Origin: a virus
Lineage: Duplodnaviria; Caudoviricetes
DNA: 50,880 bases
Virus record (IMG/VR): IMGVR_UViG_3300044878_000188
Location: 1-50,880 of that record
Reading direction: 5' to 3' (one strand)
Part shown: piece by piece, positions 1,764 to 20,880 of the stretch
Position numbering within the stretch: the first letter of the stretch is position 1
Layout: the number at the start of each line of letters is the position of its first letter
Program-made: the position numbers and the translations under genes
Notes under the pieces: generated by a model
Seen by the model: the letters and a program-made list of their open reading frames with translations, nothing else
What the model was told of the DNA's origin: nothing
Database searches by the model: none

Positions 1764-1767
1764 AGGG

Positions 1768-4871: not shown

Positions 4872-4875
4872 GGGA

Positions 4876-5115: not shown

Positions 5116-5133
5116 AAAATGCAGGGCGCACCA

Positions 5134-5604: not shown

Positions 5605-5645
5605 AGAAACCTTTCCAGGTGATAGGGGTAGACGCTGCCCAGGTC

Positions 5646-5673
5646 GTTATAACGGGCAAGTTCGGCATTTCAA
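5646..5673 (-). promoter_or_regulatory. Putative sigma70 promoter for the Gp49-family gene
   Basis: TTGAAA-N16-TATAAC on the minus strand, about 40 bp before the ATG. Confidence 0.45.
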
Positions 5674-5682
5674 GGGGAGGCC

Positions 5683-6201
5683 TTACGGCGGCGCCTGGCC
5701 ACCCTTGGCCGCGACTGCCTGGTATTGCTGCAACAGGCTCTGCAGCTTCGTCAGGCGCTCGGCGTTGACGTTGCACCTGGTGTAGTTTTCGGCGGTTGTT
5801 GCGGCGACGGTAGAGAGCGCAACTCCTGAGGGGGCTGCATCAGCGTCGCCGGCAGGATCAGGGGCTGGCAGAGGTCTGGCGGCGGCGGCGAGATCGTGCA
5901 CCCGCACAAAACCAGCGTTAACAGTGCAAGCGGCGTCAGCCTTAGCAGAGACATAAACCGGAACCTCTTTAATGATCGTGGCGCCGCGCTCCTTAATTAC
6001 CTGGACGCGATCGACGTATTCAGTGACGACGTTATCGCGCACCGTGCCCAACGCCTGGCCCTGCTCGAAAGCCTTGCTTAGGCGATCTAGCTCAGCCTGC
6101 GTTGCCTGGCCCTGCTCGTGATCGCCGCGCGCCATCCAGCCGAGGCCGAACAGCAGCGCACCGATCAGTGCCAGGCCAGCCAAACCGTAAAGACGACTCA
6201 T
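5683..6201 (-). CDS. rz: i-spanin
   Basis: N-terminal TM helix, periplasmic coiled coil with Cys residues, follows the endolysin. Confidence 0.85.
   Translation of the reverse strand: MSRLYGLAGLALIGALLFGLGWMARGDHEQGQATQAELDRLSKAFEQGQALGTVRDNVVTEYVDRVQVIKERGATIIKEVPVYVSAKADAACTVNAGFVRVHDLAAAARPLPAPDPAGDADAAPSGVALSTVAATTAENYTRCNVNAERLTKLQSLLQQYQAVAAKGGQAPP
5751..5954 (-). CDS. rz1: o-spanin lipoprotein embedded in rz
   Basis: Signal peptide with lipobox LCGC and a Pro-rich mature part; conserved in the second copy (45785-45982). Confidence 0.85.
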   Translation of the reverse strand: MSLLRLTPLALLTLVLCGCTISPPPPDLCQPLILPATLMQPPQELRSLPSPQQPPKTTPGATSTPSA

Positions 6202-6746
6202 AGGCCCACCCTGCAGAGTTCACGTTGTATTGAGCGGCGCACAACGATGCCGCCGCAGTCATTCGCCGCGATGCGGCAATCTTTGCCACCGACGTACACC
6301 CAGCGACCGAACTGCTCAGCGGTGCCGACCTGGTCGCCGGCATTGGCCCGGCGCAGAAGCGTGGACTTGGCCACCGCCCCGTGCCCGACGTTGTAGTGCA
6401 TGTCGGCGATAGCGATTTTGCAGAACAGCCCGACCGGGCCTGCTCGCTCCTGGACGAAATCGACGGAGTCGCCGAGGTCGCTCTGCAGGTACGCGGCGCA
6501 CTCCGGCTCAGTAGCCAGATCGCCGCGCCTTACTCCGGCCGTGTGGCCGGTGCAGATCGTCCAGACGCCGCCAGTGTCCGGGTACGCCTTGAATCGCGTC
6601 CCTTCCATTTCCGGCGTCAGCACCAGGAGGCCAGCAAAGATCGCCGCGCGCTCAACCGGCGCCGGCAAGCCTGTCTGATTGACCGTGAAACCGGCAGCAG
6701 CGAGCGAGAGCGTCACAGCAGCGACGATGCGCTGCAGGAGGGTCAT
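6198..6746 (-). CDS. Endolysin, GH24 lysozyme with hydrophobic (SAR-like) N-terminus
   Basis: E-x8-D-x5-T triad (EGTRFKAYPDTGGVWT), YNVG, STLLR and RW motifs. Confidence 0.9.
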   Translation of the reverse strand: MTLLQRIVAAVTLSLAAAGFTVNQTGLPAPVERAAIFAGLLVLTPEMEGTRFKAYPDTGGVWTICTGHTAGVRRGDLATEPECAAYLQSDLGDSVDFVQERAGPVGLFCKIAIADMHYNVGHGAVAKSTLLRRANAGDQVGTAEQFGRWVYVGGKDCRIAANDCGGIVVRRSIQRELCRVGL

Positions 6747-6994
6747 TGCTGGCCCCCTGAATCTCCCGGCACCTGGTCGCGCTTTCGAAGGCGAGCCCAG
6801 GCGAATTTAACGATCGGGTAAACCCAGCGACGGCCGACGCCGTCGAGCACCAGGAACACGGCATAAAACGCCATCAGGCGAATCGTCCATTCCTGATAGG
6901 TCAGGCCATAAATAAGCAGGCCGCCGCCCATGGGCGCGACCTTCGCCGCCTCGACCTTGGCCAGGCCGAGCAGGGAGATTTTTCCGTCATCCAC
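6743..6994 (-). CDS. Putative holin
   Basis: About 83 aa, hydrophobic segments, basic C-terminal tail, overlaps the endolysin start; GTG start inferred. Confidence 0.65.
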   Translation of the reverse strand: MDDGKISLLGLAKVEAAKVAPMGGGLLIYGLTYQEWTIRLMAFYAVFLVLDGVGRRWVYPIVKFAWARLRKRDQVPGDSGGQQ

Positions 6995-7014
6995 GAAAGG
7001 CGCACCCACAAAGT

Positions 7015-7036
7015 AAAAAGCCCGCACAGGGCGGGC
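7015..7036 (-). terminator. Intrinsic terminator upstream of the holin
   Basis: GCCCGC-loop-GCGGGC followed by T5 on the minus strand. Confidence 0.6.
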
Positions 7037-7072
7037 AAGGGAGGGAATAGGCCGAGGCCAGAAAGCAGGCGA

Positions 7073-7408
7073 TTACGACAGCAGCGCGTATGCCCGACCG
7101 AGGGTAATTCGAAGGTCGTACCCGTTTGCCAGGGCCGCCGCGCAGAAAGTGCGATTGCCTGGCGTGAACTCCAATTGACGCCGGTACGCCTCAACCTCGG
7201 ATCGCAGCCGATAGGCCCGCGAAAAACGGTAAAGCAGCCCATGAAGCCCGAACGTCCGCCAGAACTGGCGAACATGCACGCGCTCATGCTCGAGCAACCC
7301 CTGATCGCCTTTGAATTGCGGGCGAATGAATATGAATGGGCCGCGCGCAGCGCCCGCAAACGCTTTTCCAACCAGGCGATTGGTGTAAAACACAATAGAA
7401 GGAGGCAT
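7073..7408 (-). CDS. Small HExxH zincin-like protein
   Basis: 111 aa; LLEHERVHVRQ and a downstream EVEAY motif; conserved in the second copy. Confidence 0.7.
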   Translation of the reverse strand: MPPSIVFYTNRLVGKAFAGAARGPFIFIRPQFKGDQGLLEHERVHVRQFWRTFGLHGLLYRFSRAYRLRSEVEAYRRQLEFTPGNRTFCAAALANGYDLRITLGRAYALLS

Positions 7409-7532
7409 AGACAGAAGTCCTGCGAGTGCGGGAGGGCAGGCGAGCGCCTGCGCATTAAGAAGTGGCCGCGCATAGTGCGCGGCCGGGGCGGGCTTATTAA
7501 TTGCCGCCAAGATCAGCGAACGCCAGAAACGC

Positions 7533-7558
7533 AAAAGCCCGCTCAGGTGGCGGGCTTT
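7533..7558 (-). terminator. tR'-like terminator after the late promoter
   Basis: AAAGCCCGC-loop-GCGGGCTTTT; conserved at 47545-47570 with a different loop. Confidence 0.75.
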
Positions 7559-7581
7559 GTCGTATGTATCGCAGAGTGGAT

Positions 7582-7611
7582 AAAGTACCCTTTTTCGCGT
7601 TACTTTTGCAA
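7582..7611 (-). promoter_or_regulatory. pR'-like Q-dependent late promoter
   Basis: TTGCAA-N18-TACTTT, then a terminator; lies downstream of Q and upstream of lysis; conserved at 47594-47623. Confidence 0.65.
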
Positions 7612-7613
7612 GG

Positions 7614-7670
7614 GGTCTTTTTACCTTTTGCGCTTTTTTACTTTTGTACTTTTGGCCTTTTGGGCTTTTG
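7614..7670. repeat. 8-bp-period array adjoining the late promoter
   Basis: tacctttt gcgctttt ... tacttttg tacttttg gccttttg ggcttttg. Confidence 0.7.
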
Positions 7671-7869
7671 CCCAGTTCAAAATTCCAACCGGCTGCACGC
7701 CATCATCAACGACGCAGGCATCAGCCTTGCGCACAATGTTCACATATCCGGCCGGCTCTCTGCTGAGGTAGCAATCGTGCTCCTCTCGCAGGAATGGCAC
7801 CTCCTCGCCGACCAGGCCCGCGTACCACATCAATCTGTCACTACAGCCGGTAATTATTAGCCTGAGCAT
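7621..7869 (-). CDS. Hypothetical phage protein (absent from the second copy)
   Basis: 82 aa; ATG overlaps the stop of the upstream gene. Confidence 0.6.
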   Translation of the reverse strand: MLRLIITGCSDRLMWYAGLVGEEVPFLREEHDCYLSREPAGYVNIVRKADACVVDDGVQPVGILNWAKAQKAKSTKVKKRKR

Positions 7870-8189
7870 TATGACCTCACTGCACGAGCCCAGCCGGCTC
7901 GCGCTCCCTCGATAGTGGCGTAACCTTCGTCGACAAAGTCGCAGCAAGGGCAACGAGAGCCCCAGCGAGCCGACCGGATAAAGAACCGAGCAACCCCTTT
8001 CCCCTTGCACGTATGCGGCGGCAGATCTGGATCATTGACCAGGTGCCAGCTGGCGAGCGCCCTGACCTCGCTCGGATGCACCTCGCCCCTATTACTGCAG
8101 ATAGTGCAGACCCACAAAAATAGGCCAGAGCCAGGCTGGTGGCGTCGCTCAGGAGCTGCACCACAGTGCAGGCAGACAGGGGCGGTCAT
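7869..8189 (-). CDS. Double zinc-ribbon protein, Lar-like
   Basis: CLHCG..CTIC..A..SW, followed by a second C..CPCC..A..GW module. Confidence 0.6.
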   Translation of the reverse strand: MTAPVCLHCGAAPERRHQPGSGLFLWVCTICSNRGEVHPSEVRALASWHLVNDPDLPPHTCKGKGVARFFIRSARWGSRCPCCDFVDEGYATIEGARAGWARAVRS

Positions 8190-8191
8190 CG

Positions 8192-8605
8192 TCAGTAGCT
8201 CGACGAGGAGTCGGAGCTGCTCGAGCTGCTGCCCGAGTCATAGCTGCTTGAGCTTCCAGAGTCATAGCTCGAGCTGCTGCAGCCGTAGTCGGAACCACTC
8301 GAGCTCGAACGGCTCCAGGAGTCATCCGAGGCGGACGGCGAGCAATGACTGCGCGTCGGCTCGGGGCCGTGCCGATGCGACGAATAGGATTCGGCCTGGC
8401 TTACCTGGCTGAATGGCGATAGCGGATTGAGCGGGCTCAGCGGGTCATTCATTGGCGAATAGGCGTGGCTGCTCGAGCGCGAGCTGCTGTGCTGCAGTGC
8501 CGAGGCAGGCGCCACGCGATCGCGCAGGCGCTTGCGCTGAGCCTCGATCTCGGCCTCGCGGGCCAGGCGGCGGCGCTTGATTCCAAAAGGGTCGAATCCG
8601 AACAT
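8192..8605 (-). CDS. Ser-rich low-complexity phage protein
   Basis: PLSPLNPLSP motif and SSSYDSG repeats; orthologue at 48032-48400. Confidence 0.7.
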   Translation of the reverse strand: MFGFDPFGIKRRRLAREAEIEAQRKRLRDRVAPASALQHSSSRSSSHAYSPMNDPLSPLNPLSPFSQVSQAESYSSHRHGPEPTRSHCSPSASDDSWSRSSSSGSDYGCSSSSYDSGSSSSYDSGSSSSSSDSSSSY

Positions 8606-8608
8606 GAT

Positions 8609-8767
8609 CTATCCCTGCTTTTTCCCGACCAGGAGCACCGCCAACAGAAGGGCGACGATAACCAGGTCAGCACACATCGAAAGGAGCCGACTCGCCGAGT
8701 CGACCAGGACGACACCACCGGCCAGCCCGAAGGCTGCCCAGCGACGCAAAGGAGAGAGCAGACTCAA
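8609..8767 (-). CDS. Small membrane protein (52 aa, not in the ORF track)
   Basis: TTG start overlaps the terB stop; MSLLSPLRRWAAFGLAGGVVLVDSASRLLSMCADLVIVALLLAVLLVGKKQG. Confidence 0.6.
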   Translation of the reverse strand: MSLLSPLRRWAAFGLAGGVVLVDSASRLLSMCADLVIVALLLAVLLVGKKQG

Positions 8768-9201
8768 GCCGCGAGGCCGAAGTCTTTCAGGCGCAGGCCC
8801 AGCTCGACGGCGATCTCGTCGAGCACTTTCATTTCTTCGGGACTGATACTCCCGTCGCCCTCGGCCACGGTCAGCATGTTTACGAGCACCTCCTCGGCGT
8901 CGGCCGGGTTGTTCTTGATGTCGCGGATCTCGCGCATGATGTTCATGCGGCCCAGGCGGAAACCGGCCTGCAGCTGCTCAGTGAACAGATTTACGGTTTT
9001 GGTGATCTCGACGCCGAAGTGCTCCAGGGCCTTGTTAGCGCGGATCTGGATATCGATCTGCGCCGCTTCGTTCTTGCTGATCTCGCCGTCTGCCGCCGCA
9101 ACCAGCAGGCAACCGCCGACGATAGCCTGCATCAGGTCGCGGTTTTCCAGCTTCTTGATAGAGCGACCGGCGCCGAACAGCTTCTTTTTCAATCCGAACA
9201 T
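8764..9201 (-). CDS. terB: TerB-family protein
   Basis: Two ADG-x-I-x-x-x-E-type motifs (VAAADGEISKNE, VAEGDGSISPEE) and a C-terminal IA.ELGL. Confidence 0.85.
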   Translation of the reverse strand: MFGLKKKLFGAGRSIKKLENRDLMQAIVGGCLLVAAADGEISKNEAAQIDIQIRANKALEHFGVEITKTVNLFTEQLQAGFRLGRMNIMREIRDIKNNPADAEEVLVNMLTVAEGDGSISPEEMKVLDEIAVELGLRLKDFGLAA

Positions 9202-9230
9202 AGCGTTTCCCTCGTGGTTTTTTGGTTTGG

Positions 9231-10073
9231 TTAAAGCTTTTTCCAGAGCGTCTCGAGCGCCCCGGTATCGAGTTCGTCCAGGACGCTTTGCATGGCATCC
9301 CAGCGGGCGCGCCAGTGCTGGCGGTAGTTCACGTCGCTGACGCCCAGGAGCAGCGCCAAGTGCGGACCGTCGTAACGGCTCGCCCCGGCGTTCTTCAAAT
9401 GCTTGTGATGTTGCACAGCCAGGTGCGCCAGGCCCTTGGCGCGCTGCAGAGTCTTTCCCTGCATCTTGCCGAGCCGTGGCGCAACGCGAGCCCACAGCGT
9501 CACCACGCAGCCGGCCTCGTCATCCCACACCAGCGAATCGGCGTAGGCGTAACGAATCCAGCGGCTTTGCTCAGCGGCCAGCGTGGCCACCGTCCGCACC
9601 AGGTGCGCGTCTTCGAATGCCGTAGGACCCAACGGAATGGCGCTTTTTTTCTTTTTCCGCGTCTCGCTGCAGGTCACTCGAGTGGTATCCCTGGCCAGGC
9701 TGGCCACGTAGTCGAGGGGCAGCTTTTTTATTTCGTCGGCACCATCGAGCGGGCACTCGGCCAGGTCGTTGGCGCGATGGCGGGGGAACGCGTCGCGCAG
9801 ACGGGTCGTCTCGATTACACCAACGCCGTCAGGCTCGTCCGGGCGTTCCGTCTCGCGGTAATCAGTCGGCGCCAAGTAGGCGAACAGCAGCCATTCTCGA
9901 AGCCAAACCAGATCCTGCGCAATTGGCGCAGAACCTGATCGACCACGGCGGATCTGGACCCGCGCAGGTGGCACCGGGAGAATTTCGAGGTGCTGTAAAG
10001 CCCAGCTTTCGACGGACTCAACAGGTGGCGGCGTGTGGCGGATCTCAAGCGAGAAATTAGGGCGGGCCGTCAT
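9231..10073 (-). CDS. Q: Late antiterminator Q (phage 82/N15-like)
   Basis: WIRYAY motif, C-terminal HTH LALLLGVSDVNYRQHW; lies upstream of the pR'-like promoter and lysis genes. Confidence 0.75.
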   Translation of the reverse strand: MTARPNFSLEIRHTPPPVESVESWALQHLEILPVPPARVQIRRGRSGSAPIAQDLVWLREWLLFAYLAPTDYRETERPDEPDGVGVIETTRLRDAFPRHRANDLAECPLDGADEIKKLPLDYVASLARDTTRVTCSETRKKKKSAIPLGPTAFEDAHLVRTVATLAAEQSRWIRYAYADSLVWDDEAGCVVTLWARVAPRLGKMQGKTLQRAKGLAHLAVQHHKHLKNAGASRYDGPHLALLLGVSDVNYRQHWRARWDAMQSVLDELDTGALETLWKKL

Positions 10074-10075
10074 GC

Positions 10076-10291
10076 TCAACGTCTCCGCGCCAGAGTGATG
10101 TAGTCAACGCAGAACGAGCAGCGAGTCGCACGCGGCAGCCTGGCCAGGCGACCGGCCTCGATCGGGTTGCCGCAAGCCAGGCAAAAACGCTGCAGAACCA
10201 AACCGGCCTGCAGACACTCCTCAGCCATCAAGGCCCGAGCGACCGCGTCGTCTTGGCGCAGCTCGAGGCCGCTGGATACGTCATTGAACAC
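10076..10291 (-). CDS. TraR/DksA C4 zinc-finger protein
   Basis: CLACGNPIEAGRLARLPRATRCSFC. Confidence 0.85.
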   Translation of the reverse strand: MFNDVSSGLELRQDDAVARALMAEECLQAGLVLQRFCLACGNPIEAGRLARLPRATRCSFCVDYITLARRR

Positions 10292-10526
10292 TGGCGCCGC
10301 CTCCCTGACTTAGCAGGCTGGCCACGGCATAGCCGGCGCTCCGCTGATTGAACGACTGCACAAAGTAGGCGCAGGCGGCCGACTCGTTGAAATGGAGTTT
10401 ATGCACCTGGCTCTGCGCAGCAGCCCTCACCACGACCCGAGCCTCTGAGAGGCCGCGACGGCGAGGGAGCTCGAGCACCAGGACGGACTGACCACCAGCA
10501 ACGCGAAACAAACGAACCGACTTCAT
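10281..10526 (-). CDS. Hypothetical early protein
   Basis: Translationally coupled ORF; orthologue at 49475-49720. Confidence 0.7.
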   Translation of the reverse strand: MKSVRLFRVAGGQSVLVLELPRRRGLSEARVVVRAAAQSQVHKLHFNESAACAYFVQSFNQRSAGYAVASLLSQGGGASVQ

Positions 10527-10987
10527 TCGTCGGCCCCTTTGCGTGACGGTGGCGCGATCAATTGCGCGAAAGCGTGACTGTCACGCTTTGCAAGATCCGC
10601 CCCGGCGATCGCCAGAGCAGCGAGGACCGGCGCGAACAACGCGGCGAAAGCCTCAGGGTCTTTTTTGGCCAGAGCGGCCGAGCCATGCGCCAGCAGGGTC
10701 AGCGCCTCGGCCGACTCCTCGAATCCGCCAGCCTTACAGACGTCGGCCATGGCCTGCACGGTGCCGCCGTAGAGGGTCATTGCCGGCAGGTGCAAAGCCC
10801 CGGCTTTCAACTTGGCCTGAGCCTCGCGCAGGCGCTTTTTTTGCTGACGCTCGCGGTTCTGACGCTTGACCTTTTCGGCCTTTGTTTCACCAGGCGCAGC
10901 GGCAAAACGCTCGGCCAGCACCTCTTTATCGGTCGGAATTACGTCAGACTTCGAAATCGAGCTGACCAGGCGCAGGGCGGCACTCAT
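10523..10987 (-). CDS. Hypothetical early protein with a basic helix
   Basis: Translationally coupled ORF; orthologue at 49717-50181. Confidence 0.7.
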   Translation of the reverse strand: MSAALRLVSSISKSDVIPTDKEVLAERFAAAPGETKAEKVKRQNRERQQKKRLREAQAKLKAGALHLPAMTLYGGTVQAMADVCKAGGFEESAEALTLLAHGSAALAKKDPEAFAALFAPVLAALAIAGADLAKRDSHAFAQLIAPPSRKGADE

Positions 10988-11583
10988 AGCGGCTCGCCTT
11001 TCAGGTTGGCCAGCATCATCAGCGGGAGCGGGCGACCGGTGCCAGTCGACAGGGCCACCAGCTCGTTAAACATTGCCGAAATAGCTTCGGTGCCTTCGAT
11101 CAACATCCGGTCGACGTCTTCGGGGCTGTCGGTATGGTCGTATAAACCGTCATGCGCCGGGGCGCTGGCGGCCAGGAATTCGCCGATCGCCTGCGTCACC
11201 TCTCCCAGCTGCGCACGAGCAGCAGGGACACCAACCAGGCCAACAAGCGCAGGGATTCGCACGTCAAAGCAACCGGCCATAGCCAGGAGCTCAGAACGAG
11301 CAGAACGCTGGTAGTCCTCAGGCAGGCAAGAAAGCCAGGCCCATTTCCATTCGAGCGGGAAAGGTTGTGTAGAGTGAAAAATTCTCGTTACGCGCTGCGA
11401 CCAAGCTTTGCGGGTTTTCTGATACGTCTCGACGTCTACAGGTTCCTCGAGCTCGATCAGGCCAGCAGCAGAAAGCGCGACAGCCAGGCGCTCGCTGGCG
11501 AAACGTTCGAGCGACCACTCCGAATGGGCAAACCATCGGCTAGTCTGATCGACAATCACATCCCTTTCCGTCCGCGTGGCCAT
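10984..11583 (-). CDS. First early gene, CII/YdaT-like regulator (tentative)
   Basis: Divergent from cI; QRVTRIF...WLSCLP and HDG motifs recall CII/YdaT-type proteins; orthologue at 50178-50780. Confidence 0.5.
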   Translation of the reverse strand: MATRTERDVIVDQTSRWFAHSEWSLERFASERLAVALSAAGLIELEEPVDVETYQKTRKAWSQRVTRIFHSTQPFPLEWKWAWLSCLPEDYQRSARSELLAMAGCFDVRIPALVGLVGVPAARAQLGEVTQAIGEFLAASAPAHDGLYDHTDSPEDVDRMLIEGTEAISAMFNELVALSTGTGRPLPLMMLANLKGEPL

Positions 11584-11610
11584 AGCACCTTTCCCTGAAA
11601 TGTTGGTCGC

Positions 11611-11674
11611 ATGTAGCTCTACCTACATTCTCTATATATCGAGCAAGATTGCAACTAAATTTCTAAATAACGAG
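11611..11674. promoter_or_regulatory. OR-like operator region
   Basis: ATGTAG-N6-CTACAT palindrome (11611-28); 14-mers CTCTATATATCGAG (11630-43) and TTCTAAATAACGAG (11661-74). Confidence 0.6.
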
Positions 11675-11729
11675 TGGTGCCACTGTGCATCTAGAAGGGA
11701 CAATAATTGCGAAAAAAGGAGAGGGAACA

Positions 11730-12425: not shown

Positions 12426-12650
12426 TGGACGACGTAAAGTAGCGGGGCTACCCGCTAACGAGCTATTTTTTTTCAAAGGCCAGAAAGGACAAAGGCCGGG
12501 GGCTTTAGCACCCCCGGCCTTCGCGATAGACGCACACCTTGCGGTGTTTACTGAGCAATCGGTTATCTGTTTTAGCGGGCAGGTAACACGACGTAACACT
12601 CGAACTTTGCCGTTCAGTGCTCAGTTTAGACCCGTGTAAACGGACGTCAA

Positions 12651-12715
12651 TCGTTTGTACTTTTTCACCTTTGTACTTTTGACCAAAGGGACAAAATGAC
12701 AAACGTACAAAAGAG
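12651..12715. repeat. 8-bp-period array overlapping the repA start
   Basis: tacttttt cacctttg tacttttg, then inverted caaaggga caaaatga caaacgta caaaagag. Confidence 0.75.
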
Positions 12716-15700
12716 CACCGGGCTAGGAGCCTTTTACGCGGAGCGTTTCAACTCCGATCCGTACAGCCTGCTTGACCATTTCGAGGCAGATATCTCTGCC
12801 GCAGCGGCTGACGCATCCGTCAAATGGTCGTCGGTCAGCGATCAAGTGCGCCTCAACGGCAAGCGCCTCAAAACCTACTCAAAAGCGAAAATTGTCGCCA
12901 CCGACGACCGCTATACCGGCAAGGTCATGGTATGGGGCGAGCTCAAGCGACTTGAAGGCAAGGCCGCCACGGCCACGCGGGCCGAGCTCGCTGCAATCGA
13001 ATACCCTTACCTGACGTTCAGCAACAACGTTACCGGCGCCTCGACCTGGTCTGGTTTAGAGGCGCTGCTCGACCTGTACAAAAATGAGCGCGGCGTCGAG
13101 TCCAGCGAACGCGATCGCGAGCGGTTAGCGAAGCAGGAAGCCAAACGCCTCGAGCGGGCCGCCCGTCAAGAAGCCGAGGAGGCCGCCGAGCGCGACCGCG
13201 AGGCGCGTATTCAAGGCGAATTTTCTGCCTATGCGCACGCCTGGTTGACCGGCGAGCGAGGCGAATTCGAATACGAAGGCAAGCGGAAAGGCGGCGACAC
13301 CTTTATCGCCCGCAGCTTTGTCGAAGTCCTCGGGGCTGAGGACGGCAGCGCCCCTTACCTGCAGAAAAAGCAAATTGGCGCGATCGCGTCACGCTTCAAA
13401 ATGAAACGTATGCGTGACAGTCACGGTGTTTTCACTGGCGTTCCTTTGCTCAATATCCACGGCCAATTTCTTGGCCTGCAGCGCCTGTACGACGACAAAA
13501 AGCTGCAGGGTACGGGCGTCAAGATGGACGGCGCCCACTGCATTTTCGGCGACATCGAAACCGCCGAGGTGCGGATCGCTGTCGAGGGTTTCGCTACCGG
13601 CGCCAGCGTCTACCTGGCCGAGCTCGAGGCCGGCCGCAATGTCGCGGTAATCGTCGCGTTCAACGTCGACAACCTGGTCAAGGTGCTGCGCATCTATGAC
13701 AAGTTCTACCCCGGCTGGCGCTTTCTGAATGCCGCAGACAACGACCAATGGAAAGACGCCGGCAATGCTGGCCTGCTCGCTGCGCTTGAGATTCATCGCG
13801 ACTTGCAGCACCTAGCCACCGTGCCGACCTTTGAATCGATGAGCCTGGCCGAAGTGTCCGAGGCCCGCGCCACCGGCAAGGGACCGACCGACTGGAACGA
13901 CTACCACTGTCGCTACGGTTTGAAGTCGACCGCCAAAGCGCTGCACGCCCGCGACAGCATGTACCGCGCCGAAAAGGACTGGTTTAGCTACTGCCTGCAG
14001 CGCGTCTCCCACAGCGGCAGCAAAACAAAAATCGAGAAGGCGGCGAAAATGGCCGTCAACGCAGGGTTGCTCCTGGTGCCGATCAAATACAGCGTCGACG
14101 AGGTTGTCAGCCGCGTGATCGAGAGCATGCACCCAGCCACCCCCGACGCCGTTCGCGCCAAAGCTCGCAGCCTGGCCCGCTGGATTGCCCGGCAAAAGGT
14201 CAACCAGGCCCAGCAACTCCGGGGCTTTTCGGTGTCGGCGCTGGCCAAACCAAATGTTCAATACATGAAAATCGAGGGCGTGCGCGCTGAGCACGGCGGT
14301 ATCGAGCTGCCGGCACACATGGCCGACCTGGTCGAAAGCCTCGAGGGGATCGTCATTGTTCGGGCGCCGATGGGTTCAGGTAAAACCGAGAAGCTGATCG
14401 CTCCACTGATGAAGGCCTCGACCAAAGCGGCCTACATCGCGCATCGAATCTCGCTCCTAGACGACGCCGCGGCTCGCCTCAATGTCGAGCATTACCAGCA
14501 GGTTTACGCCCGCCAAATGCCGTGGGTTTCGCACTTAGCTTGCTGCGTCAACAGCCTGACCGCGCCGAAGTTCTACAACGCCGAGGAGCGCAGCTGGTTT
14601 ACCACCCTCGAGACACTCTGCATTGACGAGGCCTCTCAGGTCATCCGCCACACCACGACCGGACCGGTCGAGGGCCGCGTCAAGGTTATGGATGCACTGA
14701 TCGAGGCCGTCTCGGCCGCCAAGCGTGTTTTGCTTTGCGATGCCGACGCTAACGACGGCGTGATCGAGTTCTGCGAGCTCGCCCGCCCTGGCCAGGTCAT
14801 CACCGTTCTGGACGTCGTCGGGACGACTGACCATATCCGCGTTGACCATGGCGACGATGAAACCGTGTGGCAGTTGGCGATCGACCAGATCTGCGCCGGC
14901 CGCCGCGTCCTGGTCGCGAATGACTCTGCAGAGTCGGCCAAGAAAATGGCCGCCCTGATCGAGGCCAAGGTCGACGCCGAGGAAATCGGCCCGGTTCGCA
15001 TGCTCCTGGTTCACGCCGACAGTAAGGCAGATCCTGACGTCGAGGCCTTTTTGTGCAACCCCAACGAGGAGGCCACCAAATACGACGTCCTGATCTACTC
15101 GCCCGCGATCAGCTCTGGCGTGTCCATGACTACGCCGCATTTCGAGCGTCATTTCGGCCTGTTCAGTGGTAACACCGTTGGCCCTTCTGACGCGGTCCAG
15201 ATGCTGCGCCGCGATCGTACGGCACGGCACTACATTGTCGGCATTGGCCACACCTCAGGCCAACGCGAAACCGACCCTGAAACCCTCTATCGCGGCCTGC
15301 TGGTCGCCGAGAATCTGGTCTGCCAGTTCGAGGAAACGCCAGACGAGTATCGGCTCACCCGCAAAAAAACCGCCTTCGACAAGGTCTGGCTTTCCGCTGT
15401 CACCTCTGAAAACAAGGCGCGCAACAGCTTCGCCAATAACCTTTTGCTGATGCTTTACGGCGAGGGCTACCAGGTGCAGCGCTTGGCGATCGACGCCCAG
15501 GACGCCGAGGAACTGACCGACCTTTCTCGGAAAAACCGCAAGTTCGCAGGCGAGCTCGTGTTCTCTAAGCGTATGGACCTGATCGACAGCGTCGAGACAC
15601 CGACCGAGGAAGCTTTTCTCAAGCTCAACCGTCAGGAGGTCCGCAGCGAGGCGGAAAGCGCCCAAGTCGACCGCTACCACATTGAGCACCAGCTCGGCGT

Positions 15701-16541
15701 CGACGAGATCCGCGCCGACGACGTTTCGTTCTACGACGATCGCGGTATCGCCAAGGTTGTGGCGCTCGAGCTCCTGCAGGCCGACGAGGCGCAGGCAAAG
15801 GCCTACGACATGGCTCAGCGCAAAGCACGCGTAGTTCTCACTCAGCATCGTTTTAAAGCCCCTGCACGGGCCTTGCTGGCGCAGATCTTTGAAACCCTCA
15901 CTCTCGATCGCGAAACAGGCGAGGGCGAGTTCAGCAGCCTGCAGTGCCGTCAGGCGCTGGATCTAATCAAGCGCGACCAGGACACACTGGACCTTTACAA
16001 CGCGTTGAAGCTCGGGCGCCACGTTGCGAGCCTTACCGCAAAAGCCTGCGCGACTACGGTCGTTAAATCGATCCTCGAGCGCCTCGGCCAGGTCACGAAA
16101 AAACGTAAGACGAACGGACAGGTTCTTTTTGAGCTCAACAGGGATAATTGGACGTTCGTAATGGGCTACGTAGAGCGCCGTGCAGCCAAAAACACCCACT
16201 CCCTGACCACCCATGACCACGAATCGACGCATCAGCCCCTGCTGGCCCCTGAGGAGCTCGCAGCGGCCCCGTCTAATCTGGTCGCGGCGGAAAGTGACAC
16301 TTTGCAGGTAGGGGATGTAAGCACAGTTGAAAAGTATCCCTTGGACGTAGCAGAACGCGCATTTGCCTTTGCTTCGCTTTGCGACCTCCCAGCCGGTACG
16401 CCAGTTGTGCAGCTGGTGCGGGATCTGGAACCGGGCATGGTGCAGCGGATGGCCAATCCTGGGGAGGAGGTCAGCAGCTTGAAATGGATGCTTGGCTATG
16501 CGGCGGCCCTATTGAAGGCTCCGGCGAGGTATACTGTTTAA
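12696..16541 (+). CDS. repA: RepA primase-helicase replication protein (N15-like)
   Basis: 1281 aa; TOPRIM motifs EGFATG, AADND and DWND; helicase motifs APMGSGKT and CIDEASQ. Confidence 0.9.
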   Translation: MTNVQKSTGLGAFYAERFNSDPYSLLDHFEADISAAAADASVKWSSVSDQVRLNGKRLKTYSKAKIVATDDRYTGKVMVWGELKRLEGKAATATRAELAAIEYPYLTFSNNVTGASTWSGLEALLDLYKNERGVESSERDRERLAKQEAKRLERAARQEAEEAAERDREARIQGEFSAYAHAWLTGERGEFEYEGKRKGGDTFIARSFVEVLGAEDGSAPYLQKKQIGAIASRFKMKRMRDSHGVFTGVPLLNIHGQFLGLQRLYDDKKLQGTGVKMDGAHCIFGDIETAEVRIAVEGFATGASVYLAELEAGRNVAVIVAFNVDNLVKVLRIYDKFYPGWRFLNAADNDQWKDAGNAGLLAALEIHRDLQHLATVPTFESMSLAEVSEARATGKGPTDWNDYHCRYGLKSTAKALHARDSMYRAEKDWFSYCLQRVSHSGSKTKIEKAAKMAVNAGLLLVPIKYSVDEVVSRVIESMHPATPDAVRAKARSLARWIARQKVNQAQQLRGFSVSALAKPNVQYMKIEGVRAEHGGIELPAHMADLVESLEGIVIVRAPMGSGKTEKLIAPLMKASTKAAYIAHRISLLDDAAARLNVEHYQQVYARQMPWVSHLACCVNSLTAPKFYNAEERSWFTTLETLCIDEASQVIRHTTTGPVEGRVKVMDALIEAVSAAKRVLLCDADANDGVIEFCELARPGQVITVLDVVGTTDHIRVDHGDDETVWQLAIDQICAGRRVLVANDSAESAKKMAALIEAKVDAEEIGPVRMLLVHADSKADPDVEAFLCNPNEEATKYDVLIYSPAISSGVSMTTPHFERHFGLFSGNTVGPSDAVQMLRRDRTARHYIVGIGHTSGQRETDPETLYRGLLVAENLVCQFEETPDEYRLTRKKTAFDKVWLSAVTSENKARNSFANNLLLMLYGEGYQVQRLAIDAQDAEELTDLSRKNRKFAGELVFSKRMDLIDSVETPTEEAFLKLNRQEVRSEAESAQVDRYHIEHQLGVDEIRADDVSFYDDRGIAKVVALELLQADEAQAKAYDMAQRKARVVLTQHRFKAPARALLAQIFETLTLDRETGEGEFSSLQCRQALDLIKRDQDTLDLYNALKLGRHVASLTAKACATTVVKSILERLGQVTKKRKTNGQVLFELNRDNWTFVMGYVERRAAKNTHSLTTHDHESTHQPLLAPEELAAAPSNLVAAESDTLQVGDVSTVEKYPLDVAERAFAFASLCDLPAGTPVVQLVRDLEPGMVQRMANPGEEVSSLKWMLGYAAALLKAPARYTV

Positions 16542-16594: not shown

Positions 16595-16867
16595 TTGCAG
16601 TGCCAGGAAAAAATGGACAGAGCGTCCGCCAAACTCAGCCGCGCAAAATCAGCGCTAAGCATGGCCACGAAGGCCGGAATGGAAGCAACAAGAGGGGAGC
16701 TGCTCGACATGATTGCGACAGCGCTCGAACAGATAGAGGAGGCCGAGGCGGAGCTCAGAGAGGGGGAAAATCGAAATGTACTGCCGGGGCGCTTGGCCCC
16801 GGCCGGTGATTTGACGCCGTGTCAGGCGCTGGTTTTGCCACTAGCGGCGGCGAACAAAGCCCTTTGA
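16595..16867 (+). CDS. Small helical protein, candidate SOS-induced antirepressor
   Basis: GGGAGG SD before TTG 16595 (alternative ATG 16613); directly downstream of the LexA box. Confidence 0.55.
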   Translation: MQCQEKMDRASAKLSRAKSALSMATKAGMEATRGELLDMIATALEQIEEAEAELREGENRNVLPGRLAPAGDLTPCQALVLPLAAANKAL

Positions 16868-18501
16868 GCCTCCTCCTTGCTGTCACCTTCGGCGCTGGCA
16901 ATCTCGACGCCATTTAGCTTGGCGACAGCAACAAAACGACCGTCCGAGATCTCACGTACAGAGATCCTCGGCCGAGCATTCGCCACCTCTGCCGGCACTT
17001 CCGGCGCCACTGCCTCAAGCGGGCGGTTGGCGGTGGCCAGGGCCTCGCTGGCCAGCTCCAGATACTCTTTAATCAGTGGCCGATAACTTCCCACATTTAA
17101 CGAGATCGCTTTCTGCGAGATCTTCACGTCAGGCGAGGCTTTGACCGTCTCTTTCACCCAGCGGTGAATTTTCCCCATCGCTTCGCGCCCGGCAATTTTC
17201 TCGTGATCGTCCAGGGCGATCAGCGCCTCGAGGCGGCTGGCGTATTTGCTGGCCGGCGCCTCTGATGCCACTGCCGTATAGCTGATCTTGAACGCCTTGT
17301 AACTCTCCTGCGTGTCCATGTCCTCGTGCCCGAGCATTTCGCGCCAGAACACCGACTCGTTTACGGTTTTCCAGCGCTGATCTCGGCTGAAATACAGCTC
17401 GAACACTACCCGCGCCCACAGCGCCCGGCTGTCTTTGAACACGCGCGCTTCGCTGCCGAGCACTCGCTTTGCGACCGTGTTCAATGTCTTCGCCACCCGG
17501 CGATTTACTTCCGTGTTGTCCAGGTGCTGCAGCTCGAGCACCTCAGGCATGGCGCGCATTTTGGCGAACGCCTCGAGCACCAGGTCGGCTTTTATCAGGG
17601 TGTAGATCCGGTAGCTTTCGCCGTAGTCGACACCGCCACGGCGCTTGGCCTGGCCGCTGAATTCGAGCTCGAACTCGCCGACCTTCTCGAATCGGGCCAT
17701 TTTGAGAATCTCGATCTCGCGTCGGCCGGTCGCCAGTGACAGGCCGAGCGCCAGCGACGAAAAGTTCTGTTTTGGGGCGCCGTCGTGGCCGATTTCAGCC
17801 TCGGTCAGCAGCTTATGGATCGTCTCAATCAGCCAGTGGTAATTGACCTCGACAGTGTTCGTCGCGCGAACCTCGAGCGTTTCGACCGCATCGGCGGCCA
17901 GCTGCGCCGCTGTCGCTGCCGGCAACGTCAGGTGACGCATGATTTCGTGATCGAGTTTCATCGAGCGAAACGCCTCATACGCTGAGTCGTCGCGGTCTTG
18001 GCGAGCGCGCAGGAGAAGGTCGCGATGCGCCATCCGCAGCGCCGTAATGTCGACCAGGTCGGCCATGTCGAGCAGCTGCTCGGCGTAGCGCGGATGATGC
18101 TTGGCCAGGCTGTGCAGGGCCTGCTCGATCGAGTGGTGCCGCCAGTTCTGAGCCGTGACGGCCTTGCGGATGGTCGTCAGGTAGCGGCGATAGCTCGACG
18201 CCTTGAGCTTGTCGTCTTCCTTGCGGCGTTTGTCCTCGTACAGCTTTACCTTGAGGCTGTCAGCCAGGCGGCCGATCCGTTTCGTTTTCTCGCTGCGACT
18301 GAGGCTATCGTCGCCGTCAATTTTGACGACGTCAGCGATCAGCTTATCGATCAGCGGCTGCAGCTCGATTTTCTGACGCGTGGCGCCGCCATAGTTGCCG
18401 AAGCTGACGCGCTCCTGCTGATCGATGGCCGCGACCTCGTTCAACGCCTGAGCCGCGTCGAGCACCTTGTCTGCACCTTTAACGCCCTTCTTTGCTGCCA
18501 T
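16822..18501 (-). CDS. telN: Protelomerase (telomere resolvase)
   Basis: TGRR..E, FSGQAK.R, FKDSR and LGH...TQ.SY catalytic motifs; GAGGTG SD; adjacent to the telRL palindrome. Confidence 0.93.
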   Translation of the reverse strand: MAAKKGVKGADKVLDAAQALNEVAAIDQQERVSFGNYGGATRQKIELQPLIDKLIADVVKIDGDDSLSRSEKTKRIGRLADSLKVKLYEDKRRKEDDKLKASSYRRYLTTIRKAVTAQNWRHHSIEQALHSLAKHHPRYAEQLLDMADLVDITALRMAHRDLLLRARQDRDDSAYEAFRSMKLDHEIMRHLTLPAATAAQLAADAVETLEVRATNTVEVNYHWLIETIHKLLTEAEIGHDGAPKQNFSSLALGLSLATGRREIEILKMARFEKVGEFELEFSGQAKRRGGVDYGESYRIYTLIKADLVLEAFAKMRAMPEVLELQHLDNTEVNRRVAKTLNTVAKRVLGSEARVFKDSRALWARVVFELYFSRDQRWKTVNESVFWREMLGHEDMDTQESYKAFKISYTAVASEAPASKYASRLEALIALDDHEKIAGREAMGKIHRWVKETVKASPDVKISQKAISLNVGSYRPLIKEYLELASEALATANRPLEAVAPEVPAEVANARPRISVREISDGRFVAVAKLNGVEIASAEGDSKEEAQRALFAAASGKTSA

Positions 18502-18521
18502 GATTTCCACCTCGCAAAAGT

Positions 18522-18680
18522 CATACACCCTTAACCGCTGCAGCAACTATAGACCCGAGCAACATACACCGCAAGCCCTGAAACCAAACTATCGCCACCC
18601 GCCAACATATACACCCAAACCCAGCCACAACATACACCCGCAAACCAATCCCCAATAACATACACCCAAAGCCCAATCCC
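18522..18680 (+). repeat. AACATACACCC-like direct repeats left of the telomere
   Basis: Copies near 18522, 18561, 18604, 18629 and 18657; inverted copies at about 18798-18860. Confidence 0.7.
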
Positions 18681-18708
18681 TAACATTATTTTGATAGGGG
18701 ATCGGTTC

Positions 18709-18772
18709 ATGGGTGTATACACCTATTCCCCATTCTATACGTATAGAATGGGGAATCGGTGTATACACCCAT
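18709..18772. repeat. telRL protelomerase target palindrome
   Basis: 64-bp inverted repeat centred on 18740/18741 (CTATAC|GTATAG) with one mismatch (18724/18757); upstream of telN. Confidence 0.92.
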
Positions 18773-18932
18773 AACCCTGATTTAATGTAGGGGCGTTGGT
18801 GTATGTTGGTATTGGTTTATGGATGTATTGGGGAATGGGTTGTGGGTGTATTGCATACACTCATTGCCCTATGTCAATAAGGTATAAATAAGAATGTCTG
18901 ACGAGTGACGCCTTAGCGTGAAAAGCAAGCTA

Positions 18933-19121
18933 GTCAGGACGACATGTCAGCAAGAGGCAGAAAGGAAGGCATGCACCATAAGGACGGTAAGCAGTCCTTA
19001 CCTCTCAGCCAGGACGGGAAAGCCACGCAACACAAGGGCTACAGGCGCAGCGAGAAAGGACGGGCAAAAGCGCAGAGACAGAGTCTCTGTAAAGGATGGC
19101 GCTTCGCGCCCGTTTGTTTTG
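18933..19121 (+). ncRNA. Candidate Csr/Rsm-type GGA-repeat sRNA
   Basis: Six AGGA(C/A/T)G motifs, several in short stem-loops; ends in a GGCGC-TTC-GCGCC hairpin and a T-rich run. Confidence 0.45.
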
Positions 19122-19169
19122 TACCTTTGCCCTTATGGCCTATTGTACAAAGGTACATTTGTACGTATA
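19114..19169. repeat. 8-bp-period array upstream of parA (candidate parS/operator)
   Basis: ttgttttg tacctttg cccttatg gcctattg tacaaagg tacatttg tacgtata. Confidence 0.7.
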
Positions 19170-19201
19170 TTTAGGCCTCACCCAATCGCGAGGCCTTCAA
19201 A

Positions 19202-19849
19202 ATGGCTGCAAGAATCTGGACCATACAGAACCAAAAAGGCGGCACAACAAAGACGACGACCGCGACGAACGTCGCCTGCTGCCTGGCCGACAAGCACGGT
19301 AAAAGCGTGCTTCTGGTCGACCTCGACGGCCGCCAAGGCTCGGCGACTGACTGGGCAACCTCCCGTGCTGACGACGCGACATTGATCCCCTGCGTCATCA
19401 TGCGGGAAACGCTAAAGCGCGACTTGCCGCGAATCTCGAGCGGTTACGACTACGTGATCATTGACGGGATACCGCAGATCAGCACCCTGACGTCGGACGC
19501 GGTCAAGGCCTCGCACCTGGTCATCATTCCGGTACAGCCGAGCCAGTACGATATATGGGCAACCGCCGACATGGTTACGCTGGTAAAGGACCGTCAGGAG
19601 GTCACAGGCGGCACACCTAAGGCCGTGCTAATGATCGCCAGAGCCATCGCCGGGACCATTCTCGAGCGCGACGCACAGCAGGCCCTGCTCAACTACGAGC
19701 TACCGCTCACCGAAACCCAAACGCACCAGCGCGTCGCTTATGGGAAAGGCATTGCACAAGGGAACAGCGTAATGGACCTGGCACCGGGCGATGATGCGCG
19801 ACTCGAGATCGAGGCCCTGACGGCAGAACTCCTGGAGTTTGATAAATGA
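19202..19849 (+). CDS. parA: ParA/ParF-type partition ATPase (short, type Ib)
   Basis: Deviant Walker A NQKGGTTKTT, LLVDLD, YVIID and PVQPS motifs. Confidence 0.92.
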   Translation: MAARIWTIQNQKGGTTKTTTATNVACCLADKHGKSVLLVDLDGRQGSATDWATSRADDATLIPCVIMRETLKRDLPRISSGYDYVIIDGIPQISTLTSDAVKASHLVIIPVQPSQYDIWATADMVTLVKDRQEVTGGTPKAVLMIARAIAGTILERDAQQALLNYELPLTETQTHQRVAYGKGIAQGNSVMDLAPGDDARLEIEALTAELLEFDK

Positions 19850-20157
19850 CCAGCACAAAGCTCAGCACCGAGCGCCCAAGCCGCGCCGCAGCAGCTCAAA
19901 TCGAACCGCACGTCGAGAAGGCGCGCCGGGCAGTAGTGACCGATTCGGCCGAGGAGAAGCAGCTCAAGGCGATTGTGCCGGTCAAGTACCACAGGGGCAC
20001 CAACGACATCAAAAGCATGTCGGCCGACAACGTCCCGGTTAAATATCTGATCATTGAAGCGCTCGACGATCTGTTCAAAAAGTACGAGCAAGGAAAGGGG
20101 CATTACAACGTCGAAGATCAGGCAGAGCTTAAGCGCCGCCTGGAATCATTGAAGTGA
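19846..20157 (+). CDS. Small partition partner (ParG/RHH-like centromere-binding protein)
   Basis: Coupled to parA; flexible N-terminus, then a beta-helix-helix pattern ending IIEALDDLFKKY. Confidence 0.65.
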   Translation: MTSTKLSTERPSRAAAAQIEPHVEKARRAVVTDSAEEKQLKAIVPVKYHRGTNDIKSMSADNVPVKYLIIEALDDLFKKYEQGKGHYNVEDQAELKRRLESLK

Positions 20158-20378: not shown

Positions 20379-20527
20379 AACGCAGCGACGACCCTACCGG
20401 GCTGCAACTCCTCTTTTCTGGCGCAGTGGCGATCGCCATCGCACTGCACGTCATAGGCATGTTTATTTACCGTGTTTACACCCAGCGCACGGACGCCAAA
20501 ACCATCGACCAGGACGAGCAAGCATGA
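20375..20527 (+). CDS. 50-aa single-TM protein
   Basis: GGAGG SD, ATGA overlaps at both ends, one hydrophobic helix. Confidence 0.6.
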   Translation: MKRSDDPTGLQLLFSGAVAIAIALHVIGMFIYRVYTQRTDAKTIDQDEQA

Positions 20528-20880
20528 CGACCCTTAAAATCGGCGGGCTCCTGCTCGCCCTCGCGATTGCTGGCGCTTTCCAGCCTGCAGCCGCCCGTAA
20601 CTGCGACGTCGACGACGACGGACGAACTGACGCAACATGCGGCGGGCCAGACCGGGATCTAGACAACGACGGACGCACCGACGCGACATTCGGCGGCCCC
20701 GATCGCGATCTCGACAACGACGGACGCACCGACGCGCAATTCCGAGGCAGCGATCGAGATCTCGACGGCGACGGGCGCACCGACGCAACATTCGGCGGCC
20801 CCGATCGGGATCTCGATAACGACGGCCGCACCGACGCAGAGTTCGACGGCCCCGATCGCGACGTCAAAAAGAGGTGGTAG
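20524..20880 (+). CDS. Secreted acidic repeat protein (5 x 17 aa, DxDxDG motif)
   Basis: Sec signal peptide ending AAA; repeats of DLDNDGRTDATFGGPDR. Confidence 0.8.
   Translation: MTTLKIGGLLLALAIAGAFQPAAARNCDVDDDGRTDATCGGPDRDLDNDGRTDATFGGPDRDLDNDGRTDAQFRGSDRDLDGDGRTDATFGGPDRDLDNDGRTDAEFDGPDRDVKKRW
20605..20859 (+). repeat. 51-bp coding tandem repeat, 5 copies
   Basis: In-frame repeats with synonymous variation. Confidence 0.85.

Follow-up and report, generated by a model that had tools for sequence, protein, structure and literature searches.

What does a linear phage-plasmid carry in the short purine-rich stretch between its telomere and its partition operon? This question is raised by the virus record IMGVR_UViG_3300044878_000188, the complete 50,880 bp of which constitute the window analyzed here, and in which an earlier note had singled out a tract at positions 18933–19121 as a candidate phage-encoded small RNA (sRNA) sponging the regulatory proteins CsrA/RsmA. 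Judging by comparison with related replicons, this tract makes up most of a non-coding element that is conserved among them, a module of ~250 bp that lies between the repeats of the telomere-resolution site telRL and the promoter of the partition gene parA. On the + strand, its motifs and alignments mark it as the body and 3′ end of a candidate non-coding RNA, and they make it somewhat better than an even prospect that the module specifies a terminated + strand small RNA or an untranslated leader. The case for such an RNA is built on a conserved non-coding body, a bias of motifs to one strand, hairpins that are kept in position and a terminator-like hairpin ahead of an independent promoter. 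We consider the binding of an RsmA-family protein by this putative RNA unlikely, and a sponge with physiological relevance to the host more unlikely still. At the least, the module represents a new family of non-coding elements of these phage-plasmids, because it matches no Rfam family and has no counterpart in the telRL-sopA spacer of coliphage N15.

A conserved non-coding module beside the telomere

Relatives of the region were sought with ParA, the invariant operator string and blastn, and they form two subfamilies that together comprise 33 distinct sequences. Family 1 consists of 18 distinct full-length homologs of the region, and family 2 adds 15–16 further sequences, reached via the more distant plasmid pF010_1, whose ParA proteins are 62–70% identical to the ParA of that plasmid. 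Both families align across the whole module, i.e., ~250 bp of non-coding DNA; their operator units are GTACCTTT in family 1 versus GTTCTTTT in family 2. The element is present in two of 401 sampled Pseudomonas species genomes, and a pattern scan of metagenomes retrieved seven loci, four of them new and two of those four fragments. A relaxed pattern scan of viral sequences gave one additional match, which was rejected as a chance match in coding sequence.

Among 15 relatives, neither strand retains a common open reading frame (ORF), and indels of 1 and 2 bases separate the conserved blocks; hence, the region is non-coding, as the earlier note had supposed of the tract. One might still take the tract for a small protein gene, given that a 76-amino-acid (aa) ORF with an ATG start (18944–19174) and a 68-aa ORF (19096–19302) can be read through it, or dismiss it as a chance purine-rich stretch. 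However, neither frame is kept in the relatives, the 76-aa product matches no Pfam family, and a start at AGGATG would leave zero spacing between the Shine-Dalgarno-like AGGA and the ATG, while the shuffles described below and the fact that 33 sequences conserve the module rule out chance. Taken together, we regard this alternative as highly improbable.

Within the module, two motifs of the form A(A/G)GGAC form the principal landmarks. The first holds what we term conserved GGA number 1 (18982), which is found in 33/33 sequences. The second, GAGAAAGGAC (19052–19061, + strand), holds GGA number 2 and is the most conserved motif of the module, with its GGAC invariant in 33/33. In either family 74–76 nt separate the two, despite intervening sequence that shows no relation from one family to the other. 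The alignments also place CGGGAAAGCC (19015–19024, + strand) opposite the loop region of a hairpin of family 2 (hairpin B, below), and CGGGAAA is kept here in 23/33 sequences. A third GGA lies in AAAGGAT (19091–19097, + strand), the linker 5′ of the terminator hairpin; it is kept in 12 of the 18 sequences of family 1, shifted in four and lost in two, and the corresponding segment is absent from family 2. Indeed, the segment before the terminator is specific to each family, comprising a 7-bp hairpin plus AAAGGATG in family 1 and GCGGACAAGG in family 2. The other four GGA sites of the window recur in 1–7 of the 18 family-1 sequences. The earlier note had offered the conservation of the GGA loops in related phages as a check on its proposal; the picture is mixed, with two sites carrying a GGA throughout, a third in most of family 1 and the remaining four in a minority.

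Toward the telomere, where the tel repeats end, the alignments reveal a short inverted repeat (18871–18885, + strand) that is unique in the window. Its letters vary by lineage (ATACC-N5-GGTAT, ATGGCAT-G-ATGCCAT, ACCAA-GA-TTGGT, CCAGAT-TGTT-ATCTGG and GTACC-N5-GGTAC) and its self-complementarity stays; it may be the 5′ stem-loop of the RNA, or an operator. The ~90 bp downstream of it are barely alignable among the relatives. These are followed by CATGCACC (18970–18977; TATACACC in many relatives), a half-site of the telRL-type palindrome that directly precedes the first conserved AAGGAC and is flipped in orientation in the relatives L013 and L177.

AGGA motifs are biased to one strand

Every element that the earlier note had described was re-located in the sequence where it had been placed. 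The tract contains seven GGA starts (18937, 18964, 18982, 19012, 19017, 19058 and 19094), and among the longer motifs are four copies of AGGACG (starting at 18936, 18981, 19011 and 19057), an AGGAAG (18963), an AGGATG (19093) and a GGGAA (19017). These had been set beside the CsrB repeat consensus in that note. An ACC-ATAAGGAC-GGT element lies at 18975–18988. The GTC-AGGAC-GAC stem-loop with which the tract was said to begin is indeed present at 18933–18943, but its loop is lost even in the closest relative.

Chance was gauged with 5000 dinucleotide-preserving shuffles of the 189-nt tract. By this measure GGA itself is unremarkable (7 versus a shuffle mean of 4.30; P 0.075). AGGA occurs 6 times versus 1.72 in the shuffles (P 0.0024), AGGAC 4 times versus 0.37 (P 0.0006) and AGGA[CTA]G 6 times versus 0.33, a count reached in 0/5000. 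Six or more AGGA are encountered in 0.04% of 189-nt segments on either strand of the 50.9-kb record, and the AT skew peaks at +0.65 across 18960–19079.

The purine richness noted earlier is a property of the + strand and is shared by the close relatives, with AGGA present 2–7 times versus TCCT 0–1 times in 18/18 sequences of family 1. GGA counts range from 2 to 9 in these 18 sequences and from 6 to 11 in 16 sequences of family 2. AGGA is over-represented (P<0.05) in 17/18 of the former, the exception being L013 with two GGA, and in 8/16 of the latter; the excess of GGA (6–11) over TCC (0–2) in family 2 is, by our own estimate, mostly explained by base composition. More specifically, the bias can be followed into the variable sequence. 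With all conserved blocks left out, the 5′ part of 27 lineages (2291 nt, 1000 shuffles) contains 35 AGGA versus 22.0 expected (reached in 0/1000 shuffles, a count that is not a probability as the lineages are related), 37 AAGG versus 21.5 and five TCC versus 17.8. The composition-matched words AGAG, GAAG and GAGA are below expectation, GGA as such is not enriched (74 versus 67.7), and 7 of the 27 lineages have zero AGGA in this part. These figures suggest that, on one strand, A-AGGA words are selected for and their complement is selected against, as is expected of single-stranded motifs in an RNA.

Hairpins and a putative terminator ahead of the partition operator

A terminator scan identified an intrinsic-terminator-like hairpin with a 5-bp stem, GGCGC-TTC-GCGCC (19098–19110), followed by CGTTTGTTTT, the whole occupying 19098–19120 on the + strand. 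The earlier note had likewise seen a GC hairpin and a T-rich run just before the par array, and the comparison strengthens this observation: a hairpin and T-rich tail precede the par operator in 32/33 sequences, in 17 stem versions. Among these versions, stem position 4 is GC in 15, AU in one and CG in one; position 5 is GC in 10, GU in five and CG in one; and position 6 is UG in six, UA in one and GC in three. Compensatory versions at positions 4–6 include GGACGC/GCGTCC, GGGCGC/GCGCCC and GCCGC/GCGGC. On the opposite strand the G·U pairs would read A·C, so that pairing is maintained only if the + strand is the RNA. Family 2 carries two such terminator-like hairpins in succession.

Upstream of the terminator, hairpins are likewise kept in position. 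Hairpin H1, TAAGGAC-N8-GTCCTTA (18979–19000, + strand), holds conserved GGA number 1, in keeping with a caveat of the earlier note that one GGA can instead pair in a TAAGGAC/GTCCTTA stem (18979–18985 with 18994–19000). A hairpin stands at or just after the first AAGGAC site in 32/33 sequences, and its stems are non-homologous: in family 1, the AAGGAC motif itself pairs with GTCCTT, and in family 2, the motif is followed by an unrelated GC stem, CAGCGC/GCGCTG or CGGCGC/GCGCCG, with a U-rich tail. Hairpin B (GGCGCGGG-AAA-CCCGCGCC; 8–9 bp), whose loop region corresponds to CGGGAAA, is present in 16/16 family-2 sequences, two of which show a compensatory change from GC to UA. Hairpin H2, CAGAGAC-AGA-GTCTCTG (19073–19089, + strand), is specific to family 1 and is absent from the L002 group, L013, L177 and L085. 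A four-helix model, the structure of which was drawn from the window and hence from one of the sequences tested, pairs 82.6% of cells across 18 sequences versus 22–41% with the partners slid (79.5% for H2, its helix 3), and six of its pairs are changed on both sides versus 2.8 in shuffles. A long-range helix, ACGGGC/GCCCGU, that would compete with the terminator was inconsistent across lineages and was rejected.

Transcribed RNA or DNA spacer?

Several observations weigh against the view that the module is transcribed as an RNA or leader, and its weakest point is that promoter scans did not supply a start. A consensus scan of the + strand found the parA promoter as the only one, and a rough position weight matrix for sigma-70 gave weak, inconsistently placed candidates 245–295 bp upstream of the operator. 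An extended −10-like TGTCATAAT is restricted to the L007 group, and no mirror image of the telN promoter was seen on the right arm when the sequence was read by eye. Six wastewater runs labelled RNA-Seq (shares 0.06–0.19) are flagged as probably DNA; contigs of relatives in four of them show similar depth over telN, the tract and parA and are uninformative on expression. The predicted fold of the whole tract is ordinary (z −1.36; 14/200 shuffles at least as stable), and the covariation terms of RNAalifold amount to just −0.19 and −0.04 kcal/mol. As for the terminator, the three innermost pairs are the same in every version, the stem of L006 contains a C·A mismatch, L240 is without the hairpin, and the presence of two terminator-like sites in 18400–19400 versus a shuffle mean of 1.2 means little by itself. 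The T-run merges into the first T-rich unit of the par array, so that a part of the terminator signature could owe its conservation to constraints on the DNA. Finally, the RNA-like features are interleaved with others that suggest DNA: the tel half-site, a fixed distance between telRL and the operator, and the fixed spacing of the AAGGAC motifs.

The last-named features are at the heart of an alternative in which the module acts at the level of DNA, as a spacer or insulator that yields no trans-acting RNA and belongs to a nucleoprotein assembly at the linear plasmid's end. The module would then hold an outlying telRL-type half-site and isolated boxes resembling par iterons, and would keep the telomere and the operator at a fixed distance, while its one or two GC hairpins with T-runs would merely stop stray transcription from the telomere side, such that the ParB-controlled parA promoter stays autonomous. 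We see it as the main alternative and as a genuine, if unlikely, possibility. The distance from the telRL center to the operator is 402–404 bp in eight of ten lineages spanning both (411 and 413 in the two others), and the AAGGAC spacing of 74–76 bp corresponds to ~7 helical turns, despite the unrelated sequence in between. Just ahead of the first AAGGAC, CATGCACC/TATACACC corresponds to half of the inner palindrome of telRL and occurs in either orientation. Moreover, GAGAAAGGAC recurs at 4873–4882, where it begins the iteron array with 8-bp phasing that precedes the small-terminase gene and has GGAC/GTCC boxes among its units. The succession of two terminator-like hairpins in family 2 and the failure of both scans to find a promoter would also accord with an insulator.

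Other evidence tells against such a purely DNA-level role. By our count the AAGGAC motifs are out of the 8-bp register of the par array (positions 19055, 19066 and 19091 lie 94, 83 and 58 bp from the unit at 19149, distances that are not divisible by 8), and they remain unchanged when the operator unit switches from GTACCTTT to GTTCTTTT in family 2; therefore, we do not count them as par iterons. The constancy of AAAGGAC was also what led us to drop a degenerate outlying par iteron as the main reading, so that it keeps a place only within the DNA-level alternative. Double-stranded sites have no need of the strong one-strand bias seen in AGGA versus TCCT and in the depletion of TCC. A terminator implies transcription into it, here from the last ~380 bp of the replicon, and hairpins with unrelated stems that are kept in place point to a single-stranded structure. 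Weighing both sides, we retain the terminated + strand RNA or leader as the reading to which the conserved features lean.

Is the putative RNA a sponge for RsmA-family proteins?

The earlier note went further and proposed a phage-borne Rsm sponge, i.e., a multi-GGA RNA that sequesters dimers of RsmA/RsmE and shifts the host Gac/Rsm regulon without GacA; the outputs of that regulon in such a model would be biofilm, the type VI secretion system, motility and secondary metabolites. Much of the groundwork for this proposal stood up, namely the non-coding nature of the tract, the purine bias of one strand, the terminator and the enrichment of AGGA, whereas a match to Rfam was not obtained, most GGA sites proved poorly kept and their density is half that of the classical sponges. 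We hold the proposal to be quite unlikely.

The number of motifs is what one would look for in a Csr/Rsm sponge, which carries several GGA: the 189 nt hold seven GGA, six AGGA and four A-N-GGA. All six AGGA of the window fit AGGA(C/A/T)G; the four ANGGA sites include the three best-conserved GGA sites, two of which (19056 and 19092) are 36 nt apart, and these three are the ones that fit A-N-GGA-Y-G. The recognition element generally accepted is reported to be ANGGA displayed by a loop, and systematic evolution of ligands (SELEX) gave a hexaloop CANGGAYG as the optimum. The linker GGA just 5′ of the terminator is predicted to be unpaired with a probability of 0.99. Across lineages, AGGA positions turn over while their number holds, and UCC is depleted, a pattern also seen in the RsmY and RsmZ controls, which hold 0–1 UCC. 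A precedent for a GacA-independent sponge of low density is offered by RsmV, described as a 192-nt RNA with six GGA, four of them in CANGGAYG, that sequesters RsmA/RsmF; the GGA density of the tract is about equal to that of RsmV. Further, the identified hosts are all Pseudomonas, a genus whose phages and plasmids are reported to bear csrA alleles (9 of 185 phages).

Against a sponge, a search of Rfam 15 with permissive filters returned 18 matches with E≤10 in 18400–19400 and 19 with E≤1 in three relatives, none of them Csr/Rsm, whereas in two host genomes the genes for RsmY and RsmZ are recovered by their models. This Infernal check, which the earlier note had named, therefore went against its proposal. 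The window is without a csrA gene. As the earlier note had observed, there is no GacA box either: the whole window has three sites with three mismatches, versus 6.5 expected, and none is near the tract. Of the seven window GGA sites, only three recur in place in at least 12 of the 18 close relatives. The GGA density of 3.6 per 100 nt compares with 6.2–6.9 in RsmY/RsmZ of the same two genomes. The full CANGGAYG is not matched by any motif, nor does a conserved hexaloop hold one; GGA number 1 is buried in a stem in most lineages. Predicted unpaired probabilities of the GGA sites range from 0.02 to 0.99 with a mean of 0.59, versus 0.58–0.59 in RsmY and 0.86–0.89 in RsmZ. The lineages devoid of AGGA in their variable part, the mere two GGA of L013 and the lack of enrichment of GGA as such also speak against titration. 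Moreover, binding alone would not prove a sponge, because the sRNA SPA0079 is reported to bind RsmA/N without sequestering it.

A model for the module and its implications

We infer the transcription, start site and protein ligand of the module from these patterns. Under the RNA or leader reading, rightward transcription of the + strand would produce a purine-rich, UCC-poor RNA or leader of roughly 150–250 nt, which would form two or three hairpins and end in the terminator (19098–19120) just before the par operator. The same terminator would also shield the parA promoter from incoming transcription. The RNA would bear the two GGA motifs common to the 33 relatives along with extra AGGA motifs specific to each lineage. 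The leading candidate ligand for ANGGA motifs in Pseudomonas would be a CsrA-family protein (RsmA/E/N), which the RNA might either titrate or be controlled by. A bolder version, that the module defines a telomere-proximal sRNA family binding RsmA/E/N via the invariant AAGGAC pair and evolving AGGA sites, strikes us as doubtful.

Were that version true, the plasmid prophage would tune the Gac/Rsm switch, or sense it for partition or telomere functions, without GacA, and the RNA would be a counterpart, on the RNA side, of the csrA genes known on Pseudomonas phages and plasmids. The literature listings searched held no phage-encoded Rsm/Csr sponge RNA. If binding of an RsmA-family protein is borne out, temperate phages would gain a direct means of acting, after transcription, on the switch from motile/acute to biofilm/chronic lifestyles and back. 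If the RNA exists at all, it would constitute an unannotated family without an Rfam model, specific to one group of linear phage-plasmids, some of them carried by clinical P. aeruginosa and others by plant-associated Pseudomonas, and encoded at an unusual site, the last few hundred bp before a hairpin telomere. If, on the other hand, the module is only an insulator or spacer, it would display a tightly fixed telomere-to-par distance and a terminator-shielded par promoter, and would bear on the organization of replicon ends.

The replicon end and other features of the record

The window is, on the evidence of its gene content, a Pseudomonas N15-like linear phage-plasmid with telomeres, i.e., a plasmid-prophage, as it combines a protelomerase, a palindromic telRL, a primase-helicase RepA and a partition operon beside the telomere. 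The RepA-like primase/helicase is encoded at 12696–16541 on the + strand (phrog_4913, E 2.4e-290). The telN-like protelomerase gene follows on the − strand (16822–18546; Pfam PF16684, E 8.9e-30; TelK stirrup, 1.2e-7; TelK_N, 2.6e-4), with its likely start at the ATG at 18503, just before which lies GAGGTGG. The telRL palindrome itself spans 74 bp (18704–18777; center 18740/18741), with arms of 37 nt that are 92% complementary, have 0 nt between them and are kept in the relatives. GGTGTAT/ATACACC repeats flank it on both sides, those of the right arm (18798–18862) being mirrored on the left arm at 18523–18666. The closest DNA matches are plasmids of P. corrugata (86%), P. monteilii (72%) and P. 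aeruginosa, and blastn against a phage collection gave no record matching the window.

The relatives are contigs or plasmid records of 36–40 kb; several of the plasmid records and many viral contigs start or end at the palindrome, and many contigs of relatives begin 320–500 bp upstream of parA. Hence, in the prophage, the tract sits in the last few hundred bp of a hairpin-ended replicon, with the module within ~110–380 bp of a hairpin end. The two ends of the record, 1–11681 and 39681–50878, are homologous and non-identical (94.7% over 5.1 kb, then 75–87% in pieces). Given this and the size of the relatives, the 50.9-kb record looks like ~1.3 genome lengths, perhaps an assembly joining two related phage-plasmids. 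Three relatives of ~75–79 kb labelled circular, namely L213 (NZ_CP115281.1, pF010_1), L001 and L008, contain mirror-image copies of the parA region astride telRL; by appearance, they are either head-to-head dimers of ~38-kb linear replicons with hairpin ends or fold-back assemblies of such replicons. One contig of the wastewater run X4 joins 18712 and 19074 on opposite strands; it may derive from a relative with a different end structure or from an assembly fold-back at the telomere.

Half-site repeats of the telRL type reach ~220–235 bp to each side of the palindrome center (18520–18980) and on the left side enter the telN 5′ region; in L005, L009 and L012 the outermost of them, GGGTGTAT, lies immediately next to the ATG of telN. 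The binder of these repeats could therefore control telN. Antisense pairing of the half-site CAUGCACC/UAUACACCC with GGGUGUAU beside the telN start is a trivial consequence of the repeat, and we make no claim of it.

Downstream of the module lies the par operator (19113–19171, + strand), an 8-bp-phased array of GTAC boxes, in which the TGTAC units start at ~19117. It overlaps the parA promoter, TTGTAC-17-TATATT, and is nearly invariant in family 1. The operon comprises parA (19202–19849, + strand), encoding a small ParA ATPase (Pfam AAA_31, 2.9e-24; CbiA, 1.6e-10), and a small partner gene of 103 aa (19846–20157, + strand; phrog_15913, function unknown) with 30 homologs, all of ~100 aa. The partner is presumed to be the binder of centromere and operator; its ribbon-helix-helix match is weak (E 0.016, below the cut-off), and a model of the monomer is uninformative (pLDDT 55, pTM 0.24).

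Arrays of AAAGGTAC/GTACCTTT and variants with 8-bp phasing recur at 4877–4950 (copy at 44587–44660), upstream of the small-terminase gene; at 7580–7665 (copy at 47620–47700), a second intergenic site; at 12650–12720, across the repA start after a gene for a CI-like repressor; and at 19113–19170, at the parA promoter. The plasmid pPHPALO418 shows this pattern of four sites per genome unit as well. The pattern looks as if a single small DNA-binding protein tied partition, replication and late genes together, an arrangement that recalls the omega repressor of pSM19035 and, in N15, the dispersed centromeres. Beyond the operon, a 118-aa ORF (20524–20880, + strand) has a signal-peptide-like N-terminus and approximately five tandem units of ~17 aa (DGRTDATFGGPDRDLDN), which appear as DNA repeats in self-comparison.

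Comparison with known systems

Among known RNAs, the closest parallels to the tract are RsmV and RsmW of P. aeruginosa, reported as GacA-independent sRNAs that sequester RsmA/RsmF. Going by the available descriptions, RsmV and the tract are alike in size and number of motifs (192 nt and six GGA versus 189–240 nt and seven GGA), a terminator-ended architecture is common to these RNAs and the tract, and the GacA independence of RsmV is paralleled by the absence of a GacA box here. They differ in that RsmV presents four CANGGAYG in stem-loops, each reported to matter, whereas the tract has no full CANGGAYG, no conserved display in loops and no sequence homology to RsmV. Further, RsmV and RsmW are chromosomal, in contrast to the location of the tract at the end of a linear phage-plasmid. 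Likewise, RsmY/RsmZ (Rfam RF00195 and RF00166) and RNAs of the CsrB type share with the tract the repeated A/C-AGGA-N-G motif (CAGGACG in both), the near absence of UCC and a rho-independent terminator after a single-stranded GGA. In contrast to RsmY/RsmZ, the tract has no covariance-model match, half the GGA density and no GacA box.

On the side of DNA, the relevant comparison is with the iteron arrays that serve as operators and centromeres of small-ParA systems, such as those of omega in pSM19035 and ParG/parH in TP228. The 8-bp-phased arrays of short boxes at several promoters of the window resemble these, and one of the arrays contains GGAC/GTCC boxes; in contrast, the AAGGAC motifs of the tract are isolated, out of register and constant across the different operator units.

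The replicon as a whole is best set against coliphage N15, whose dispersed centromeres are linked to late-gene expression. Partition in N15 is accomplished by SopAB (type Ia), whereas the window encodes a small ParA with a partner of ~100 aa, and the telRL-sopA spacer of N15 is, unlike the module, AT-rich, with no AGGA cluster and no GC hairpin plus T-run on the sopA-sense strand. The architecture of the two regions is nevertheless alike: the tos-sop region of N15 has the same gene order of telRL, spacer and sopA, with the partition operon reading away from the telomere, and the start of sopA lies ~460–490 bp from the center of telRL, compared to 461 bp for the corresponding distance in the window.

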